Below, piece after piece: positions 1 through 26,750 of a stretch of 26,750 nucleotides of DNA (position 1 is the stretch's first letter; each line of letters begins with the position of its first letter). The position numbers and the translations under genes were made by a program. The notes beneath the pieces are model-generated. The model had not been told where the DNA came from. It ran no database searches and was given only the letters and a program-made list of their open reading frames with translations. The DNA comes from a virus, in IMG/VR virus record IMGVR_UViG_3300025897_000071. One strand, 5' to 3'.

Positions 1-99
1 CGTGCCGCTGAAGCCCACGCTTTTTCGGCGGTGGTGAGCGTATCGCCATCCTGTCGTTTTTCAAGGAGCGAAAGCCAGAGGGCGTTGGCGTTTTCGCGC
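1..99. repeat. Terminal direct repeat, copy 1 (identical to 26652..26750)
   Basis: Base-by-base comparison shows that 99 nt at the window start equal the last 99 nt. A minus-strand ORF reads through the junction in frame. Confidence 0.95.
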
Positions 100-4460: not shown

Positions 4461-7400
4461 TAGTAGTTTGTCCCGTATACTGTTAATTCTTCGGCCATGT
4501 AGGGTACAGTTGCGGTCGCTATGGTCTGCCCGTCCAACATCACATACACGTTTTGACCACCAGTAGCGCGGCCCTGCCAGCCACCCATATTAGAGAAATC
4601 ACCCCAGCCACTAAAGTCTACGCCACTAAGATTATCAGCCCACCCCGCGCCACCGAGAAAGACACCGCTGTCCATAGCCATTTGCTGCCATTGTTCTAAT
4701 GTCAAACCAAGATCGGCAAGTGAGGTGCCTTCGCTTAATAATCTGCGTATTGATTCAACAAAAACCAATCCCGTAGCCGCAAGGCCAAGTGCTGTGCCTG
4801 CGCCGCCTCCTGCACCTGCTGTGCCTGCGCCGCCTCCTGCACCTGCTCCTGCGCCTGCGCCCGGCATAAGTGTATTGATTGTGTCATTGACTTGTGAGGC
4901 GGTATTGACCGCCGTTTGAGCATCGAACCAACCCCAGACTTTAAGCACAATCCACTTGATGCCATCTAGTACATTATCTAAAATACCAATGATTGAATCC
5001 CACGTTTCGGCTTTAAAAAGAACTAGCAATGCTTCAAATCCCAAAACCACATCTGCAACATCGGTTGCCACCTTCGTGATTTTATCAGCCCAGCCGCCAA
5101 GTTTTGAGCCAAACAAAACGTCTAACCCTCCTTTTACGTCCCTTAACGCACCAGCCACCAGCCCCGTATCTGAGCTAAGATCGCCCATGTAGTCGGACGC
5201 TTTTTGCACTTTTAAGCCAAACAAACCCCATTTGTTAATGTCATCTTCTGAAGGTGGATCTACGTCCCATTCAGGCATTTCCAGCGTAGACGGAACACGC
5301 AGATTGCCCGTTAGCACTACGGCTTCATCACTTACGCTTTTTATGGCAGAAATAAACGTGCTAAAGTTGGGTTTATACGTCTCAAGCTCTGCAACTACAT
5401 TTTTTACACCACCAACAGACCGCCCCGCATTGCTCGCCGCCGCACCGACGCTGAAGGTTTTGGATTCAGAAAGTGCATCTCTCAAGGTTTGGAACGATGG
5501 GGCAAGTTTATCCGCATCATTCACCGCTGTTTCGATGTCACCAAAGGCGGTATCAAGGGCTTCGGCATCTACCTTTCCGCTAGACAAAGCCGACTTGATG
5601 GTTGCAAACGATGGAGCGAGTATATCCGCATCACCCACCGCCGTTTCGATATTGCCAAAAGCAGCGTCAAGGGCATCAGCATCTACCTTCCCACCAGACA
5701 GAGCAGATTTAATGGTTGCAAACGATGGAGCGAGTATATCAACATCCCCGACCGCCGTTTCAATTTTTCTCAACGCAGAATCAAACAAGATAGCCGCCGA
5801 CTGCCCACCGCCCAACGCCGACTTGATGATCCCAAACGCTGGGTTAAGCCCGTCAACATCACCCACCGCCGTTTTGATATTATCAAAGGCTGTTTCTACA
5901 TCTTCAGCAGATAACTCTACACCATCTTCGCCAGTTAATTCTTTCTTTGCCCCGGCTCCAAAGTCACCCAACAAGCTCAAGCCGCTGGTCTTCATGTTGC
6001 TGATAGCGGTTGTAATGCCTCCCATCGCACCTTCAACAAGCGTCTTGAAATCTGTTGAGCCAAATTTCGAGTCTAGCTCAGTATCGCCTACGTCTAATGT
6101 GTCCTTTATTGTGGTTACAAAATTGGATGCCGTTTGATTTGTATAGTTGAGTTGTTGTTCTACAATGTTATTGAGTGCTGTCAATTCACCTCCCCATCCT
6201 GGCTTTAGGAGTTCCATTCCTAAATCAATGGCGTTCTTCATCTGCTCGAAGGCGTTGGTGATCACCAAAATCGTCTGAGATAACGCGCCGCCTAGTATGG
6301 TGATAATCTCCCCACCGTGAGCAGCCCACAAGGCAGATATAATTCCCAGCCCTGCATTGACAATGGTGTACGCCGCATTTAGACCAGTACCCAATGCACC
6401 GCTAATGGCGGTCATCATCGCCCCAACCTTGTCCATTACGCCTTGCTTGTTGTCATCCCACCAAGTCAAAAGGGTTCCGAATATGGACGCTCCAATATCA
6501 ACAACATTCTCAACATAAGATTTAATTTGATCAATCGCGGGCTGAAAATCATCTACAATGGAATCATAAAAACCCGACACGGCCGCCGTTACTGAGTCCC
6601 AGTTTCGAGCAAGGGCAAAGGCGATTACGCCTATACCTACCATTGCAATGCTCAAAGGTGAAAACAAACCCATCAACAGAGAGCCAACGTTGAAAACGGC
6701 AGACAGACTACTGGCCAAACCACCGACCACAAATACCGCAGGGCCAAAAGCGGCGGCAAGACCCGCAACGGCAAGGGCGGTTTTCTGTGCTTCCGGGGAA
6801 AGACTAGACAGCCATTGTACTGCGGTTTTTAGTTTTTCAACAAAGGGCAAAAGGGCTTGCCCCATAAGTGCGCCAAACGATTCGGCTAAATCACCTATTG
6901 AATTTTTTAGTTGAACGAACGGCCCCATTCCTGCACTAGCCGCCGCCGCTGCCGCACCGCCAAACTGGTTTTCTAGTTCGTCAAGAATCAACGCCTGTGC
7001 TTCTGCCAGCCGATTCGTTTCAGCCATCTCCTTAATGACAGCCTTTTGTTTATCAGAAAATTGTATGCCAGTGCGCGAGAGTGCGCCCATGTTTGCAACG
7101 GGGTCATTTAGGGCCTTACCCAGCTGAATCGTTGCGCTGGTGAGATCCGTTCCCATCCTTGTCGAAAGATTAAGAACGGCTTGCTGCGTGCGCTCAAACT
7201 CCGAGCCTGCAATACTGGTAAACGTGAGTAAGTTGGCGGTGACATTCTTTAGAATATCCTCATCACCAAACAAAGATGTTTTTTGTAGTTCAGAAGCTTT
7301 TTGCGCAAGTTCATCAACCTCAAACCCTGCCGCCTTGCCTGTTGATTTAACCGCGGATTCTACCTGTGCAAGTGCTTTCGCCTGCTGATCCCACGCCTTG

Positions 7401-8773: not shown

Positions 8774-8909
8774 TGTGTTGTTCTTTTTTGTTTGAAAAAT
8801 CCCGTATGCCGGGAATGAAAAAATCCAATTCCAATTTGGAATTGAAGCACACGGCCATGAAATTTTTGTATTTCAAAAATTGGCCGCAATTTGTATTTGT
8901 TTTTATCAT
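8766..8909 (-). CDS. Possible small ORF (47 aa) in the AT-rich island
   Basis: GGAGGA lies 7 nt upstream of the ATG at 8909. The product is MIKTNTNCGQFLKYKNFMAVCFNSKLELDFFIPGIRDFSNKKEQHNG. Its stop overlaps the major tail start by 8 nt. The region is low-complexity and AT-rich, so it may be non-coding. Confidence 0.2.
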   Translation of the reverse strand: MIKTNTNCGQFLKYKNFMAVCFNSKLELDFFIPGIRDFSNKKEQHNG

Positions 8910-8988
8910 CTCCATTCCTCCGATTTGTACACCACGTAGAACCAGTAGGAGGTCAAAAAAAATGTTGTCAATATCAACAAGGCTGTGA

Positions 8989-9387: not shown

Positions 9388-9857
9388 TTTTTCAACGCCT
9401 CTTTTATTCGCCTGCGGTGGGCGGCGCGTTCACTTTCTGTTGCGGGCAATAAAAACGGTCTTTTCTTTACGCCAATCCCCAGTTCATGATATTTGGCATA
9501 ATGCACACCAACGGCCACCGATGCGGCAGTCTTCAGGCCCGCAGACGCTTGCGCCAATCGGCTTACCGCCACACCATCGGCGGTGCTTCGATTGTCCCCA
9601 TCGCCAAAAACCTTGAGGTCTGAAAGGTTTTCACGAAATCCAATGTGGATGGATGCCCGCATTAGGCCTGTATCAACTAGCAGTTTGCGCTTCTTTCCAT
9701 CGGGGCGCGTCAATTCGCCGTGTTTGGTGACGTTCTTTTTAGCCTTTGCCTCAATGTTTATGGCGGTTTCGTTTACGGCATCGCGTACTGCGTCCGTAAC
9801 TTTCAGTTTGTAGTTTTTTATATCTACTCTTGCCCGCTTATCGTCGAAGGTAATCAT
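9384..9857 (-). CDS. HK97 gp10-family neck protein
   Basis: 157 aa. It carries the DTGLMRASIH motif and the N-terminal pattern typical of this family. ATGA-type overlaps on both sides. Confidence 0.7.
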   Translation of the reverse strand: MITFDDKRARVDIKNYKLKVTDAVRDAVNETAINIEAKAKKNVTKHGELTRPDGKKRKLLVDTGLMRASIHIGFRENLSDLKVFGDGDNRSTADGVAVSRLAQASAGLKTAASVAVGVHYAKYHELGIGVKKRPFLLPATESERAAHRRRIKEALKK

Positions 9858-10189
9858 GTGCGTTCCTCAACTTTTAGGCGTGTCCATTCGTCGCGAAAGT
9901 CTACGTTCTCCACGCTCCGAACGTCAAAAGTGCGTTCATCAATGATTAACTGGTGACGGGGAAGCAGTTCGGTGTTTCTGTCTCCCAAATCATTGCGGTA
10001 TCGCATCAGTATCTCATGATCAACAACTTCACCGTTCTGATCGGCAATTCTCAATTCACGCGCTGACAGCGGTTTCAAGGAGCAGTACACCGTGTCGATA
10101 GTAGACCACCCATCTGCGGTTTTAACGCCTTGAACGCGCGTTACGCTACGCTCCTGCACCTGTGCGCGTCTCCATAGCTTATGAATCAT
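9854..10189 (-). CDS. Head closure / head-tail adaptor protein, paralog 2
   Basis: 111 aa. It aligns by eye with 10186..10512 on TRV.GV...WST...VY...K.L...E...ADQ...HEI.MRYR...TFDVR.V. Confidence 0.65.
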   Translation of the reverse strand: MIHKLWRRAQVQERSVTRVQGVKTADGWSTIDTVYCSLKPLSARELRIADQNGEVVDHEILMRYRNDLGDRNTELLPRHQLIIDERTFDVRSVENVDFRDEWTRLKVEERT

Positions 10190-11081: not shown

Positions 11082-11152
11082 TTTTTAAGCCGCTTTTTGG
11101 GTAATGTCCAAAACATTGCCCCCCAGCCTTACGGGGCTGAGAGGCTTCGTTT

Positions 11153-12937
11153 CTATGCGTTTTCAGCGTAGCCTAGTGCCGCACTTTGTGTAATTCCGAA
11201 AGCGGTTCGGAAGTACCAAAGAAGCCTGACCTGACCATAATCTGCGCGTGTGAATGGATCGCGCAGGAACTGAAGTGCTGGATCTTCAAACTTCGCTGCA
11301 TAGCGCCAGTTACCGAATAGGACGGGCTTGTTGCCTGTTGCGATTGTGTCACACTTGTTCGACAAGACTGCGCGGTAGCCGAGTGGCCCCGGTGTGTCCT
11401 GCGTGTTGGTAACGTAGCGACGCGTGTTAGCATCGTCCAGTTTCGCAATAGCGTTCAGCGTTGATGGTTTCATCACCCACGCAACAGATCCCGAATCGTC
11501 CAGATAGAACGCATTGTCGTCGTTGTATACAACATCTTCGAGTTCGTCAACGGCAATCGCGGCCGTACCTGCAAGGGCTTTGAACTGCGTTCCACCTGAT
11601 TTCACCGCGTTGATAAGCAGTTCATTTTCGGTTTTTGCATAACCCAACGCAACACGATCCATGATGTAGTTCATCACATCAGCCGAAGAATCACCGAGCA
11701 GTTCGTTGGAAATCAACGTGCGCTTGGAATACTTGGTTTTTGTCAGTACGAGTTGACCGATTGCCGGAGAATCCTGATCGTACTGGGCCGCTTCTGCTGT
11801 TGAAACAAATTCAGAGTCACCTTCATTGTCAATCGGCACATCAAGCGTAGTGCCTGTACCTGTGAATGAAGTAACGCCCAACTGAGAAGCGATAGATGCT
11901 TCGTCACGGCGGCGAATAATCGTCCCGAACATATCATCCGTTACGGTATTACCACCTTCAGCGGCCACACCGGCAGTCATATCTGCGGCATTACTTGCTT
12001 TGATTTCAACGATTGGGCCAGTAGGGTTTTCGCCTGTAATCAAATGCTTGACGCCGCCTACGTCTCCGGTGCGTAGCCAATGGCCAAACGCGGCTTTCTG
12101 ACTGTTACCGATATTGCGAATGATTGTAGGAGCGGCTCCTGTTTCCACGACTGACTTGACTTCTTGAACAGGTTCAGCGGCTTTCGCTTCCGTCGCGTCA
12201 AGTCTTGCGTGTAGTTTTTCGATCATCTCGTTGACGTTTTTCAAAGCGTCCTCGGATGTGTTTTTGGCTTCTTCGGCCATGATGTTATCCTCTTGGATTG
12301 GATGTTTGGTGACTTCAACCGCTTTGGCTGTTGTCTGCGGCTCTGCGCCGCCTGTGTTTTCAACTTCGCCTTGCTCTACGGTTGGCGCGGTCATGGCCTG
12401 AACCGCCTCTGCCTGTTCCGTCTCGTGATCGGGTTTGGTTGGAAATAGGGATTTAAGAGGCATCACAGTAGTTGCCATGCCTCCCGCTGGCTGGGTCGTT
12501 AGCGATAATTCGCCGAGTGGCCAGCTTGTAATTTTGTATGTGTTTCCGTCTTTGATGCGATCCACTAAATGGCCAACGGCCCCAGAGGATGAACGGAGTT
12601 TGCCTTTTCGAGCCAGTTCAAGAATGTGTTGCTCAAACTCATCGGCTTTGTCCAGTTCGGTTTCAAACCAGAGGCCCGCATCCATGCGCTTGATCGTGCC
12701 GATGCCAATGGATTTCTTCCCGAAGGCAGGGTTCATACCGTGATCGTAGTAGACGGGAAGCTGTTCGTGGATGCCAAACTCGGTGTCTTTGGCGAAATAA
12801 TCACCTACAAGATCAGGGTCTTCTGGCCCCGTGAAGTTGACAATCATGCCACCAATGCGGCTTTCGCCGATGGCCTTCAGTTCGCCGCCGATGGCAACAA
12901 GAATTTCGTCGTGTTCGACTTTTCCGGGATCTTCCAT
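11153..12937 (-). CDS. Prohead serine protease (HK97/S78 type) fused to HK97-fold major capsid protein
   Basis: 594 aa. Residues about 1-165 look like a prohead protease (...YYDHGMNPAFGKKSIG...LRSSSGAVGH...). An acidic, coiled linker follows. The C-terminal approximately 300 aa are HK97-MCP-like (...LTKTKYSKRTLISNELLGDSSADVMNYI...RLLWYFRTAFGI). An in-frame ATG at 12280 is preceded by AAGAGGA. Confidence 0.85.
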   Translation of the reverse strand: MEDPGKVEHDEILVAIGGELKAIGESRIGGMIVNFTGPEDPDLVGDYFAKDTEFGIHEQLPVYYDHGMNPAFGKKSIGIGTIKRMDAGLWFETELDKADEFEQHILELARKGKLRSSSGAVGHLVDRIKDGNTYKITSWPLGELSLTTQPAGGMATTVMPLKSLFPTKPDHETEQAEAVQAMTAPTVEQGEVENTGGAEPQTTAKAVEVTKHPIQEDNIMAEEAKNTSEDALKNVNEMIEKLHARLDATEAKAAEPVQEVKSVVETGAAPTIIRNIGNSQKAAFGHWLRTGDVGGVKHLITGENPTGPIVEIKASNAADMTAGVAAEGGNTVTDDMFGTIIRRRDEASIASQLGVTSFTGTGTTLDVPIDNEGDSEFVSTAEAAQYDQDSPAIGQLVLTKTKYSKRTLISNELLGDSSADVMNYIMDRVALGYAKTENELLINAVKSGGTQFKALAGTAAIAVDELEDVVYNDDNAFYLDDSGSVAWVMKPSTLNAIAKLDDANTRRYVTNTQDTPGPLGYRAVLSNKCDTIATGNKPVLFGNWRYAAKFEDPALQFLRDPFTRADYGQVRLLWYFRTAFGITQSAALGYAENA

Positions 12938-12943
12938 AAATGC

Positions 12944-12984
12944 AAAAAGGGGCCATACTTCGCAAAAAGCGAAACATTGGCCCC
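12944..12984 (-). terminator. Intrinsic-terminator-like hairpin plus T5 tract, 6 nt before the capsid gene ATG
   Basis: The minus strand reads GGGGCCA-atgt-TTCGC-ttttt-GCGAA-gta-TGGCCCC-TTTTT-gcattt-ATG. It has 7-bp and 5-bp stem segments, GC-rich at the base, followed directly by T5. Confidence 0.55.
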
Positions 12985-13011
12985 AGTTGGTGGGAAATTT
13001 TATGTTGAGTA

Positions 13012-13059
13012 GGATGAAACCGCTCCTGCGCCGGAGAAATAACGCAGAAGCGGTTATCC
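13012..13059 (-). promoter_or_regulatory. Long imperfect stem-loop in the capsid gene leader
   Basis: The arms ggatgaaaccgctcctgcg (13012..13030) and cgcagaagcggttatcc (13043..13059) pair over about 17 bp, with one mismatch and a small bulge. The loop is 12 nt. Confidence 0.4.
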
Positions 13060-13068
13060 TGATCGTTA

Positions 13069-13094
13069 TAGCGCGGAGAGGTAGGAACGCGCTA
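13069..13094 (-). promoter_or_regulatory. Stem-loop (7-bp GC-rich stem, 12-nt loop) in the capsid gene leader
   Basis: tagcgcg (13069..13075) and cgcgcta (13088..13094) are perfect reverse complements. Confidence 0.4.
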
Positions 13095-13120
13095 CACTTT
13101 AGAATATAAGGATTATTTTA

Positions 13121-13300
13121 TCATTTAATCAATTTCACGCTGTGGTACATTCGCTCCGTTGAAAATACAGACGCTCCATTTCTATTTTTCATCAAGCGAA
13201 TTTCTGCCAATTCTCCATCCCAAACTTTCATCGCTAGGTGCATCACCTCTTCGAGAAAGCGTTGGCGTTCCGCGTCGTATGCTGGTTTGTCGTTGCTCAT
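13121..13300 (-). CDS. Hypothetical small protein (59 aa)
   Basis: The start is moved to the ATG at 13300 (MSNDKPAYDAERQRFLEEV...), which has AAGGAG 5 nt upstream and an ATGA overlap with the upstream stop. Confidence 0.45.
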   Translation of the reverse strand: MSNDKPAYDAERQRFLEEVMHLAMKVWDGELAEIRLMKNRNGASVFSTERMYHSVKLIK

Positions 13301-13479
13301 GTGCGCTCCTTGTAGTCGGTGCAATAAAATCCCTGACCCTTAAAAATGATGTGTCGGCCTCCTTCAAAAATGCGTTGTACTGGTCGGCCCGCGTGTTCGG
13401 TTTTAGCGTCTTCCTTCATCGGGTGATCAATCTCAATTTCACCGCCTTTCTTATCGGTGTATTTGTAGCGGTATATCAT
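13297..13479 (-). CDS. Small FmdB-like protein lacking the zinc-binding cysteines (60 aa)
   Basis: The start is moved to the ATG at 13479, which has AGGAGG 7 nt upstream and an ATGA overlap. MIYRYKYTDKKGGEIEI...GRPVQRIF...FKGQGFYCTDYK parallels the FmdB/CxxC_CxxC_SSSS layout (M.IYEY.C..CG..FE...CP.CG..V.R......F.G.GFY.TDY), but both CxxC knuckles are replaced. Confidence 0.45.
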   Translation of the reverse strand: MIYRYKYTDKKGGEIEIDHPMKEDAKTEHAGRPVQRIFEGGRHIIFKGQGFYCTDYKERT

Positions 13480-13739
13480 TGACATTCCTCCTGAAATTGC
13501 AACGCCACCAAACAATCCTTTATCTCATTTACGGCTGATACCATTTCCCTGCGGAGTTGTATTTCTAGGCGCAAAGCATCCTCTTTTGTGAATCTGCTGT
13601 CATCTATTACATCAACTCTGCTTGTTAGTCTTGCCGTTTCGCTTAATGACCACGATGCGGCGGTAAGGGAAACCGCACAAAAGACCCCCAATAACCAAAA
13701 AAAAGCATCTTTGAACTGTTTGGATTTATCGTATGTCAT
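13476..13739 (-). CDS. Small membrane protein (one N-terminal TM helix plus a charged helical tail)
   Basis: 87 aa. FFWLLGVFCAVSLTAASW is a hydrophobic helix, followed by the helical region ...EDALRLEIQLRREMVSAVNEIKDCL. ATGA-type overlaps on both sides. Confidence 0.55.
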   Translation of the reverse strand: MTYDKSKQFKDAFFWLLGVFCAVSLTAASWSLSETARLTSRVDVIDDSRFTKEDALRLEIQLRREMVSAVNEIKDCLVALQFQEECQ

Positions 13740-19070: not shown

Positions 19071-19322
19071 TTACAGTTTCCAATCTGGGGAGGTAACTCG
19101 GTAGACGGTGCGCACATGAACGCCAAACTGCTTGGCAATCTCGGACACGCTTGCGCCCTTCCTGCGCCTTGCTCTGATTGCAAGGCAATCCACCATTCGC
19201 AAACTCTGCGGGGCTTGGTGCAGGCGTTCCAGTAAAGTGTACTTATCAAAAATAAAAGATTCCGATTCAAGCGAGATGCACAGATCACCGTCATCGGTAA
19301 TGCTCAACTGGGCTGATCTCAT
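19071..19322 (-). CDS. HTH DNA-binding protein (resolvase/Hin-type HTH), possible late regulator
   Basis: 83 aa. The C-terminal RRRKGASVSEIAKQFGVHVRTVYRV is a classic HTH. ATGA overlap with the upstream gene. It precedes the lysis and structural genes. Confidence 0.6.
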   Translation of the reverse strand: MRSAQLSITDDGDLCISLESESFIFDKYTLLERLHQAPQSLRMVDCLAIRARRRKGASVSEIAKQFGVHVRTVYRVTSPDWKL

Positions 19323-19747
19323 GGCGCAACCTCGGCAATGTATCGCCGTTTGGGATGTACTATTCGCTCAATAGCAGACTTGTACAAAAAGGTGTAATCC
19401 GAATAACCTTCGTGATTGATGCGCTCGGATGCGTTTCGACAGGCGTGGAAGGCGTTGTCATGTCGACCATCTTTGCCGTAGACGCTGAATGCTATTTCGC
19501 TGAACGTGTTGTCGGTGTACTCACGCAGAAGCAGGATAAACACAAAACGGGCGCAGACTAGGTACTCCTGTCTGCCGGGCTTAAGAATAGCGTCAAAATC
19601 AACGCCCGATTCTTCCGAAACGATTTTGATAATGTGCCAAAAAATTTCCTCCTTCATGCGGGGCAATGCCTGATCCCCTTTCTTTTGAAATTGACGCATC
19701 CAATATATCACCGTTCTTGCTTGTCTGATCTTCTGAGCTGTATTCAT
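19319..19747 (-). CDS. DnaA domain IV-like (DnaA-box-binding fold) protein
   Basis: 142 aa. VDFDAILKPGRQEYLVCARFVFILLLREYTDNTFSEIAFSVYGKDGRHDNAFHACRNASERI aligns by eye with E. coli DnaA domain IV ([57 protein letters not shown]). Confidence 0.75.
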   Translation of the reverse strand: MNTAQKIRQARTVIYWMRQFQKKGDQALPRMKEEIFWHIIKIVSEESGVDFDAILKPGRQEYLVCARFVFILLLREYTDNTFSEIAFSVYGKDGRHDNAFHACRNASERINHEGYSDYTFLYKSAIERIVHPKRRYIAEVAP

Positions 19748-20583
19748 TTTGAGTATTGATCGTGTTGTTCACAATAGTTTTTTGTTTGGTACGAATGGGT
19801 GGCTTTGCCGCCGCAGACGCAACAGGATCTTGACTTGGCCACCTTGTCAGTTTCGCCCCATTTCGGCCTTTCCTTTTTCTCGGTCTTTTGCCATTCACCC
19901 ACATCGTCATCAAAGCGATCCTGATTGAACCACGTTGATGGGTGCGGACAAAATGACCCCTGCCCAACTGGTGAGCGAGCGAACAGGGCTACGCGGTTCT
20001 CCATCCATTCGACAGGATCTTCTACGCGGTCGGCGATGCGCTCAATGGCTTTCGTTATGGCTACGAGGGCGGCACGTTTACCAACCTTCTTTGGGTAGTG
20101 CTGATACAATGCTTCAATTTCAGATTTCGACACCTTTTTTCTTTTATTAGAAGCAGAAACAGAAACAGAAACAGAGTCAGATAGGGGGACATTTGTGGGA
20201 CATGATTGGGACGAGTCATTTTCTTTGATTGATTCCCGGTACTTTTTCTTTCTTTCTCGCTCGTATGAGGTACTTTCGTCTTCTCTTTTTCTTCTGCGAG
20301 ATACGAGGGACAATTGTGGTAATGTCCCAGACCTGTCCCATTGAATATCTGCCACACCGTACTTTTCCAACTCCGCAATGGCGCGTTCCATTTCGTCTTT
20401 TTCGACACCTGCCATCTTTGATAATTCGCGCACCGTACCCGTCATTTCATAGGCATTCAATTCGTGCATCGCGCACAAGGATTCTAGCCATACTCCACGC
20501 GCCTCGGCTGACAATAATTTCACCTTTGGGTTTTTGCGCCAATCGCCAACCCACCACTTCATCCAAGGGTTTGAATCTGCCAT
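19744..20583 (-). CDS. Replication organiser-like protein (DUF1376/YdaU-like N-terminus, C-terminal zinc ribbon)
   Basis: 279 aa. The N-terminus is W.KWWVGDW...LSAEARGVWLESLCAMHE (DUF1376 pattern W...GD.....L...E.G.Y..LL). The centre is basic and serine-rich. The C-terminus is CCVCGGKATHSYQTKNYCEQH. Confidence 0.6.
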   Translation of the reverse strand: MADSNPWMKWWVGDWRKNPKVKLLSAEARGVWLESLCAMHELNAYEMTGTVRELSKMAGVEKDEMERAIAELEKYGVADIQWDRSGTLPQLSLVSRRRKREDESTSYERERKKKYRESIKENDSSQSCPTNVPLSDSVSVSVSASNKRKKVSKSEIEALYQHYPKKVGKRAALVAITKAIERIADRVEDPVEWMENRVALFARSPVGQGSFCPHPSTWFNQDRFDDDVGEWQKTEKKERPKWGETDKVAKSRSCCVCGGKATHSYQTKNYCEQHDQYSK

Positions 20584-20594
20584 AATGCTGAACC

Positions 20595-20639
20595 AAAAAA
20601 AAGCCCGACCCCGAAGCAGTAAGGTTACTTGCGGGGCCG
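20595..20639 (-). terminator. Terminator-like hairpin plus T8 in the leader, 11 nt before the replication gene ATG
   Basis: The minus strand reads CGGCCCC-GCAAGTAA-cc-TTACTGC-ttc-GGGGTCG-ggc-TTTTTTTT-ggttcagcatt-ATG. It has a 7-bp outer stem (one G-U) and a 7-bp inner stem with one bulged A. Confidence 0.45.
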
Positions 20640-20743
20640 AGCGAAGAAAGTTGTTAACGCTATTCAGGGAAAGACCTTACCAGACCCAGCGCGTGAAGCC
20701 AATATACACCGCATCAACATAAGATGTAGGGAAAAAAGGGCGG

Positions 20744-20788
20744 TGGGATTTATGGGATTTATGGGATTTATGGGATTTATGGGATTTT
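20744..20788. repeat. Five head-to-tail 9-bp repeats, TGGGATTTA x4 plus TGGGATTTT (iteron-like)
   Basis: Read directly: ggTGGGATTTATGGGATTTATGGGATTTATGGGATTTATGGGATTTTggg. It lies about 160 bp upstream of the replication genes and is followed by an AT-rich, T-rich tract (20850..20910). Confidence 0.9.
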
Positions 20789-20929
20789 GGGTATGACACG
20801 TATTGCGAATAAACGCAACAACTAATCCAGTACATTATTTCGCTATATGGCAGGAATTGGAATGTTTGTTGTTTTTGTTGATTGGTGTTGATTAAATCAT
20901 TTCAATCGCAGGGCTGCAAAGGTCTAGTC

Positions 20930-26527: not shown

Positions 26528-26750
26528 TTATCCCCAGAGCGGACTATTCTCTATGTCATATGCACCCGCTTCAGCATCCGTTAGCGTAGCCAAGTGTGCT
26601 TCAATCAAGTTCGACTTATTGCGAATGTCTTTGATGGTGAGGCGCATTTGACGTGCCGCTGAAGCCCACGCTTTTTCGGCGGTGGTGAGCGTATCGCCAT
26701 CCTGTCGTTTTTCAAGGAGCGAAAGCCAGAGGGCGTTGGCGTTTTCGCGC
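26528..26750 (-). CDS. 3' part of the same junction-spanning gene (26652..26750 duplicates 1..99)
   Basis: Hand translation across the junction gives ...AWASAARQMRLTIKDIRNKSNLIEAHLATLTDAEAGAYDIENSPLWG, then TAA at 26530..26528. The gene is absent from the ORF track because the window edge splits it. Confidence 0.6.
   Translation of the reverse strand, partial: RENANALWLSLLEKRQDGDTLTTAEKAWASAARQMRLTIKDIRNKSNLIEAHLATLTDAEAGAYDIENSPLWG
26652..26750. repeat. Terminal direct repeat, copy 2 (identical to 1..99)
   Basis: Same 99-nt string as 1..99. It is consistent with the assembly overlap of a circular or circularly permuted genome, or with a short physical terminal redundancy. Confidence 0.95.

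Follow-up and report, generated by a model that had tools for sequence, protein, structure and literature searches.

The major capsid gene in the 26,750-nt stretch of viral DNA analysed here (the window) is preceded by a 183-nt noncoding gap, which opens with a predicted promoter and closes with a strong terminator stem-loop whose U-tract abuts the start codon. That this layout is conserved, with a terminator before the gene in 19 lineages, is a new result. By analogy with known late circuits we interpret the cassette as a gate like lambda pR'-tR', built from promoter, leader and terminator, off by default and needing antitermination, and we put the probability of this reading at about one half. 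The capsid is probably not made until RNA polymerase is enabled to pass the terminator. We favour a default-off gate because a promoter followed by a strong terminator ahead of the head genes is the layout of both pR'-6S-tR' and the capsid operon of the Bartonella gene transfer agent (BaGTA).

Genome context of the capsid gene

The first ~90 bases of the window recur at its end (1..90 and 26661..26750; e.g. 10..56 = 26661..26707), indicating that it is a complete, circularly permuted phage genome of ~26.65 kb. No close cultured relative was found by blastn and tblastn against 50,697 phage records. The minus strand carries, in order, the replication gene (19744..20583) and the genes for a DnaA-domain-IV protein, an 83-aa HTH protein, an endolysin and a ParB-like nuclease, then those for the small and large terminase subunits, the portal and MuF proteins, three small ORFs and the 183-nt gap. 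After the gap come the 594-aa prohead-protease/HK97-capsid fusion gene and the adaptor and tail genes. In an alignment, 21 homologues of the fusion protein (40-56% identity) have their first residues (M-E/A-D/N) at the same point, which identifies the ATG at 12937 as the real capsid start. The features of the region are listed in Table 1.

Recognisable Shine-Dalgarno (SD) sequences precede only about one-fifth of the genes (e.g. AAGGAG at orf59 and CAGGAGG at 9854..10189). Since most gene starts are A-rich or overlapping, the host probably tolerates SD-independent initiation. The ORF at 13297..13482 (minus strand), which overlaps the start of orf59 by ATGA, is homologous to FmdB-type zinc-ribbon proteins but lacks the zinc-ribbon cysteines, having YKYT where CxxC is expected; PF09723 was found in its relatives in lineages L098, L101 and L105.

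Table 1. Features of the capsid leader and of related elements, in the order of transcription; entries beginning with L refer to relatives
Feature	Coordinates	Strand	Basis
Second strong terminator; stem 20642..20603, -25.3 kcal/mol; T8 20602..20595	20595..20642	minus	terminator scan
orf59, small conserved protein directly upstream of the leader, possible partner only	13121..13300	minus	homologues, AlphaFold model
orf59 family members in relatives	L098 2628-2804; L102 2548-2733; L101 1044-1214; L105 2750-2911		
-35 hexamer TTGATT of the predicted capsid-leader promoter	13127..13132	minus	promoter scan; overlaps end of orf59
-10 hexamer TATATT	13103..13108	minus	promoter scan; predicted transcription start near 13096
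Leader hairpin 1, GC-rich, 7 bp (13094..13069), 9 bp in the MFE structure	13067..13096	minus	folding; at predicted RNA 5' end
Leader hairpin 2, 5 + 15 bp with 2-nt bulge	13011..13060	minus	folding; conserved only in 98-99% relatives
Single-stranded linker ACUCAACAUAAAAUU, A/U- and C-rich, G-poor, with ACAUWW-type motif	12996..13010	minus	read by eye
Mini-hairpin UCCCA-CCAAC-UGGGG, candidate antiterminator element	12981..12995	minus	folding, complementarity test
Terminator stem-loop (hairpin 3), 15 pairs, -21.8 kcal/mol	12949..12984	minus	folding, terminator scan, conservation in 19 lineages
U-tract and spacer UUUUUGCAUUU	12938..12948	minus	sequence; no SD
Prohead protease/HK97-fold major capsid fusion gene, 594 aa	11153..12937	minus	PF05065, E = 6.7e-34; PHROG major head protein
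GC-rich hairpin directly after the capsid stop codon, poor U-run	11118..11145	minus	scan
Post-capsid terminators in relatives	L011 ~4830-4880; L013 ~2800-2855; L100 ~4786-4840; L102 ~4805-4850		

A strong predicted terminator next to the capsid start codon

A 201-nt stretch covering the leader on the minus strand folds with a minimum free energy (MFE) of -68.5 kcal/mol, as compared with -42.6 ± 4.4 kcal/mol for 200 dinucleotide shuffles (z = -5.95), none of which folded as well. The three stem-loops that the original prediction had placed on the minus strand of 13120..12938 were reproduced by both a sequence check and folding. The last of them, hairpin 3, had been called terminator-like, and it has all the sequence features of an intrinsic terminator, with four G-C pairs at its base directly next to a U5 tract. 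It is followed by TTTTT (12948..12944), GCATTT (12943..12938) and the ATG at 12937, so that the stem ends 11 nt before the start codon. When the whole window was scanned for hairpins followed by T-runs, two sites on the coding strand were by far the strongest: hairpin 3 and the one preceding the replication gene. We agree with the earlier view that no space is left for a promoter between the terminator and the ATG. The SD that was said to be missing is absent indeed, there being no GGAG-like motif between hairpin and ATG at either the capsid or the replication site.

One candidate of another kind, a leader peptide, was rejected: the sole ORF (12977..12813, 54 aa, out of frame) begins within the terminator arm and has no counterpart in the relatives. 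A search against Rfam gave no match at E <= 1 anywhere in the window.

Conservation and covariation of the terminal module

Capsid relatives were collected from IMG/VR, GTDB genomes and other assemblies. In 19 lineages (capsid identity 31-56%) the capsid gene is preceded by a noncoding gap of 89-426 nt, which ends in a GC-based hairpin of 11-16 pairs (-14.6 to -26.7 kcal/mol) followed by U4-7. The distance from stem end to ATG is 9-12 nt in 18 of the 19, with no SD between, and the tail has the consensus U4-7-(G/A/C)(C)(G/A)-UUU. Such sites are not frequent, as 220 kb of related loci contained only 40 hairpin-plus-T-run matches, about half of them at the capsid-leader position.

The stem sequences are unrelated, the inner 5' arms being only 31% identical between lineages, and yet each pair of arms is matched. 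Native arms gave a mean of -21.4 kcal/mol, as opposed to -9.3 ± 3.4 kcal/mol for chimeras combining arms from different lineages. Covariation in the last stem, which the original prediction had made a test of its function, was thus found in the form of arms that match only within their own lineage. A MAFFT alignment of 18 terminal modules was out of structural register, and covariation was instead measured per sequence in Python. G.U pairs account for 54 of the 250 terminator pairs (22%), with the U mostly in the 5' arm, and because of them the sense RNA folds much better than the antisense RNA (means of -21.4 and -13.9 kcal/mol, respectively). Conservation, covariation of the arms and the bias towards the sense strand together show that selection acts on the hairpin as folded RNA, in the sense of the mRNA.

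The many U.G pairs arise because the 5' arms are U-rich and the 3' arms G-rich. In lineages L102, L098, L010, L101 and L016 the G-rich 3' arms lie ~17-25 nt before the ATG, and SD-like strings are frequent in them (AGGAGGGUGG, GAGGGUGG, AAGGUAGGUGG). These strings are buried in the stem and are too distant from the AUG for a normal SD.

In L050 and L054, fused-capsid relatives at a greater distance, a terminator is retained and is followed by a longer spacer with an SD-like motif; what is conserved most is therefore the terminator itself and not its position directly against the ATG. The module is absent where the capsid gene is unfused or where the capsid ORF abuts the upstream gene. Pattern searches added little: 1) ACCAACTG-N25-50-TTTT-NNN-TTTATG gave at least 117 matches in viral contigs, mostly random, and nothing remained after filtering but lineages already known and some few unrelated terminators. 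2) CCCTTTTTGCRTTTATGGAA gave 23 matches in metagenome contigs, the only capsid leaders among them being those of the same phage and of one new lineage (L247). Since so few of the latter matches are capsid leaders, TTTTTGCGTTT is simply a common terminator tail.

A predicted promoter at the 5' end of the gap

The predicted promoter of the window, TTGATT-18-TATATT, matches the sigma70-type consensus at 9 of 12 positions; recognition by the sigma factor of the host is assumed. Promoters of this type (TTGAAC/TTGAAA-N17/18-TATAWT) with at least 9/12 matches were found in 11 of the 19 lineages, and two more lineages have one with 8/12 (13/19 in all). The commonest forms are TTGAAC-N18-TATATT and TTGAAC-N18-TATAAT. 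Without exception they lie where the gap begins, at a distance of 69-261 nt from the ATG. In 9 of the 13 promoter-bearing lineages only 6-7 nt separate the -10 hexamer from a stable hairpin, which thus starts at the predicted 5' end of the RNA and supports the promoter call. Such 5'-proximal hairpins, of unrelated sequence, are present in L011, L013, L016, L037, L056, L092, L098 and L100, and from its position hairpin 1 of the window is likely to be a 5'-terminal stabiliser of the leader RNA. Since the conserved promoter sits upstream of hairpin 3, capsid expression must pass through the terminator. The conclusion that the capsid gene needs read-through, drawn earlier from the lack of space for a promoter further downstream, therefore gains a second basis, as the sigma70-like promoter puts the terminator in its path.

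Two other promoter types were considered on inspection and rejected: a promoter for a leaderless mRNA overlapping the hairpin, and a Bacteroidota-type TAnnTTTG promoter in the U-run. No TA lies two bases before TTTG, there is no usable -10, and some genes of this phage have a strong SD. Several lineages have a hexamer starting with TA between +1 and +10, and in the window TATAAC lies at ~+27; hexamers of this kind would arise by chance about as often, no common position was found, and no convincing -10-like pause element emerged in the initial transcribed region.

A mini-hairpin competing with the terminator base

Immediately upstream of the terminator the linker ends in a C-run that is able to pair with the start of the terminator 5' arm. 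The result is a mini-hairpin whose 3' half is made up of the first four G residues of that arm, and it therefore competes for the terminator base. It is 15 nt long in the window and has 4-7 bp and a loop of 4-10 nt across the lineages. Versions of it are CCUCA-CCAAC-UGAGG in L011 and L100, CCCA-CCAAC-UGGG in L098 and CCCA-CCGAA-UGGG in L102, while other lineages differ. The change of stem from CCCA/UGGG to CCUCA/UGAGG follows the terminator base.

When folding was stopped before the terminator 3' arm, the mini-hairpin formed in essentially all lineages. Complementarity between the upstream segment and the arm base had a mean of -5.56 kcal/mol, compared with -3.32 ± 0.41 kcal/mol for shuffled upstream segments (0/200 as good) and -4.30 ± 0.36 kcal/mol when the arms were permuted among lineages (0/500); the effective sample behind these figures is smaller than 19, since the lineages with the CCAAC loop are related. 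This loop, a pentaloop closed by A, occurs in only five lineages. The mini-hairpin is weak (~-5 kcal/mol) beside the terminator, so that it would need a kinetic advantage or a stabilising factor to prevent termination. ACAYAUW-like strings lie 10-15 nt before it in L011, L013, L100, L101, L102 and L103, as judged by eye and without statistics. Pairing of an upstream C-run with the G-rich 3' arm was also inspected as a candidate, and no consistent complementarity was seen.

Other terminators in the genome

The original prediction had pointed out a similar hairpin before the replication gene. A second strong terminator does lie beside that ATG (20583), which follows the T8 run by 11 nt, but homologous leader elements such as the mini-hairpin are lacking. 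The two terminators are analogous, not homologous. Upstream of the replication-gene leader and terminator, a questionable ORF of 52 aa contains five tandem 9-mers (AUCCCAUAA, minus strand) at 20744..20790, possibly iterons or sites for an operator.

The hairpin directly after the capsid gene, which in the window has a poor U-run, is a strong terminator in L011, L013, L100 and L102 (-22 to -30 kcal/mol, T4-7). The window shares a loop of the CCCCGUAAGG type with L011, L013 and L100. The U-run of the L100 hairpin continues directly into the ATG of the head-tail adaptor gene, which has no SD and lies 9 nt from the stem end; in L013 and L102 this distance is 18-22 nt. Further downstream, the 215-nt gap before the major tail gene (8774..8988, minus strand) contains two hairpin-plus-U-run elements (8846..8824 with U6 and 8814..8800 with U5) followed by a 21-nt A-rich leader without SD. 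The major tail gene is a second highly expressed structural gene preceded by terminator-like hairpins.

Search for an antitermination factor

Members of the Q, N, AlpA, CAT/PRD and other antiterminator families were not found among the ~30 phage ORFs scanned with Pfam and PHROGs. The remaining candidate partners are the 83-aa HTH protein (19071..19322) and orf59. Homologues of orf59 lie upstream of the leader in ~10 lineages, though not in all those that bear the module. The family (53-61 aa) is confined to this phage group and is usually encoded by the last gene before the capsid leader; only 15 representatives were found in 1.8 billion proteins. The AlphaFold model of orf59 consists of a helix plus a beta-hairpin (pLDDT 87), for which searches returned no fold match (best E = 1.2) and no family match. 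We regard orf59 as a possible regulator and do not claim it as an antitermination factor.

Comparison with known systems

The BaGTA capsid operon has a promoter-terminator layout in which the Q21-like factor BrrG overrides the terminator, and, as with lambda Q, it is established that circuits of promoter, terminator, -10-like element and antiterminator gate capsid operons (bioRxiv 10.1101/2024.11.20.624540). The phage cassette resembles lambda pR'-6S-tR' and the BrrG circuit in having a predicted near-consensus, constitutive promoter, a short noncoding leader and a strong intrinsic terminator ahead of the head genes. More terminators remain to be passed downstream, as in lambdoid late control, and the terminated product would be an RNA of ~150 nt, comparable to 6S of lambda. 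It differs from lambda in that i) it is located inside the structural block, between the packaging genes and the capsid gene, rather than before the lysis genes, ii) the terminator U-tract abuts a start codon that has no SD, and iii) no Q-family protein was found among the ORFs scanned, nor a clear -10-like pause element. The mini-hairpin competing with the terminator base is also foreign to the Q mechanism, which needs none.

In this last respect the cassette is closer to the RAT elements of BglG, SacY and LicT (and to the HutP, GlpP and PyrR types), where a hairpin upstream shares nucleotides with the terminator 5' arm and the two structures are mutually exclusive, and where the element likewise lies in the leader between the promoter and the first gene. 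The RAT is 29 nt long, however, whereas the phage hairpin is 15 nt in the window, about half that size, and its loop is not universal; no CAT/PRD or known RNA-binding antiterminator is encoded among the phage ORFs scanned, though the host might supply such a protein.

In T7 the major capsid gene, gene 10, is likewise served by a strong promoter of its own; a stem-loop at the 5' end stabilises its mRNA, a U-rich enhancer promotes translation, and the T-phi terminator follows the gene directly. It differs from the phage cassette in having no terminator between promoter and gene, a strong SD and transcription by the phage's own RNA polymerase.

Proposed mechanism and alternative explanations

Under the gate reading, a promoter of the host sigma70 type (13132..13103) would start RNA near 13096, and the leader RNA would consist of a 5'-terminal hairpin, a variable structured part, an unstructured A/C-rich linker and the strong intrinsic terminator. 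Most RNAs begun here or in the packaging genes would by default end 3-4 nt before the AUG, and the capsid and downstream head-tail genes would be made only when termination is overridden. From the sequence we infer that termination does occur, that it is regulated and that a factor takes part. The override would be an antitermination timed by the phage, of one of two kinds: i) RNA polymerase could be modified at the promoter or leader, as by lambda Q at pR'-tR', or ii) stabilisation of the mini-hairpin (12995..12981) could tie up the G residues with which the terminator stem begins. The U-rich tail directly 3' of the hairpin would, in the read-through mRNA, be a landing site for ribosomes in place of an SD. 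The terminators after the capsid gene in L011, L013, L100 and L102 and the one before the replication gene fit a phage that relies on regulated read-through.

Against the gate, a strong terminator before the gene of the most abundant virion protein could be a constitutive device for dosage and stability. A fixed fraction of polymerases would then pass a leaky attenuator with no dedicated factor, and the same element would act as a platform for mRNA stability and translation. The hairpin would be a protective 5' stem-loop, perhaps once RNase E has cut the A/U-rich linker, where RN-WUU-like strings occur; it would insulate the U-rich, SD-less start and leave it open for S1-dependent binding of the 30S subunit, and with a further hairpin behind the stop codon it would yield a long-lived capsid message. 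Several observations fit this explanation. The stem ends at the 9-12 nt from the AUG (18/19 lineages) that an SD helix would usually occupy; relatives without the module (L038, L042 and L086, with GAGAGGG; L029; L089) carry SD-like sequences instead; hairpins lie on both sides of the capsid gene; and the 5'-terminal hairpin at the predicted start makes stability elements a theme. Weak, time-independent terminators that tune dosage are, moreover, common in phages (PMC9163698). However, in no lineage is the hairpin a weak tuner, all of them having strong terminators of canonical form, and a strong terminator would cut the output of the protein needed most. L050 and L054 have both the terminator and an SD behind it, so that conservation of the terminator does not depend on the start being SD-less, and the 9-12 nt spacing could equally result from an ATG placed after a full-length U-tract in a compact genome. 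We consider a constitutive device a serious rival, though less probable than the gate.

A late switch of a new type, with one 60-nt element at its core, is also conceivable, although we hold it to be doubtful. Binding of the mini-hairpin, which is of boxB size, would prevent termination, and the U-tract would double as an SD-independent ribosome-binding site, so that a single element would control the capsid gene at the level of transcription as well as of translation. The binder would be an unrecognised small phage protein, the initiating ribosome or S1.

A role in cis for the leader RNA had also been proposed, in which stems 1 and 2, like put of HK022, would bind the transcribing polymerase, which would then resist termination at hairpin 3 and at later terminators without any protein. 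Two stable stem-loops do lie between the predicted start and the terminator in the window, just after the promoter as in put; several terminators follow, and no antiterminator protein was recognised among the ORFs scanned. However, this two-stem layout is not conserved among the relatives. The leader hairpins of the relatives range in number from none to more than three and vary in shape, with none in L012 (which has only ~26 nt before the terminator and no stable hairpin there), one small hairpin in L037 and L056 and several in L102; hairpin 2 has no counterpart in L012, L037 or L056. Since number and shape differ so freely, hairpins 1 and 2 have no conserved counterpart. Among the close relatives (98-99% identity) the leader shows few changes, which preserve wobble pairs or fall at unpaired positions, with one disrupting a pair; in L003 hairpin 2 has two, an A-to-G change that keeps a G.U pair and one in the bulge. 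No compensatory changes in stems 1 and 2 were seen among these relatives, nor was there a match in Rfam, and a cis-acting RNA that is always active would render the terminator pointless. The put-like role is therefore not borne out and we regard it as very unlikely. That hairpin 3 is an ordinary end-of-operon terminator of the packaging genes (terminase to orf59) with no role in capsid control would agree with the long co-directional block upstream and with the frequency of terminators between phage modules, but is scarcely credible, given a conserved promoter upstream of it and no room for one downstream, a capsid gene and all tail genes that need transcription through it, and an architecture kept in 19 lineages.

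Implications

To our knowledge, little is known, outside a few model phages, of how small phages without an RNA polymerase of their own time and dose the synthesis of their most abundant protein. The cassette described here, consisting of a promoter, a 5' hairpin, a mini-hairpin, a terminator and a start codon without SD, is compact and widely conserved in an uncultured phage clade. A strong terminator set against the capsid AUG implies either an antitermination factor or an unusual mode of SD-independent initiation, and the cassette could serve as a tight, portable expression switch.
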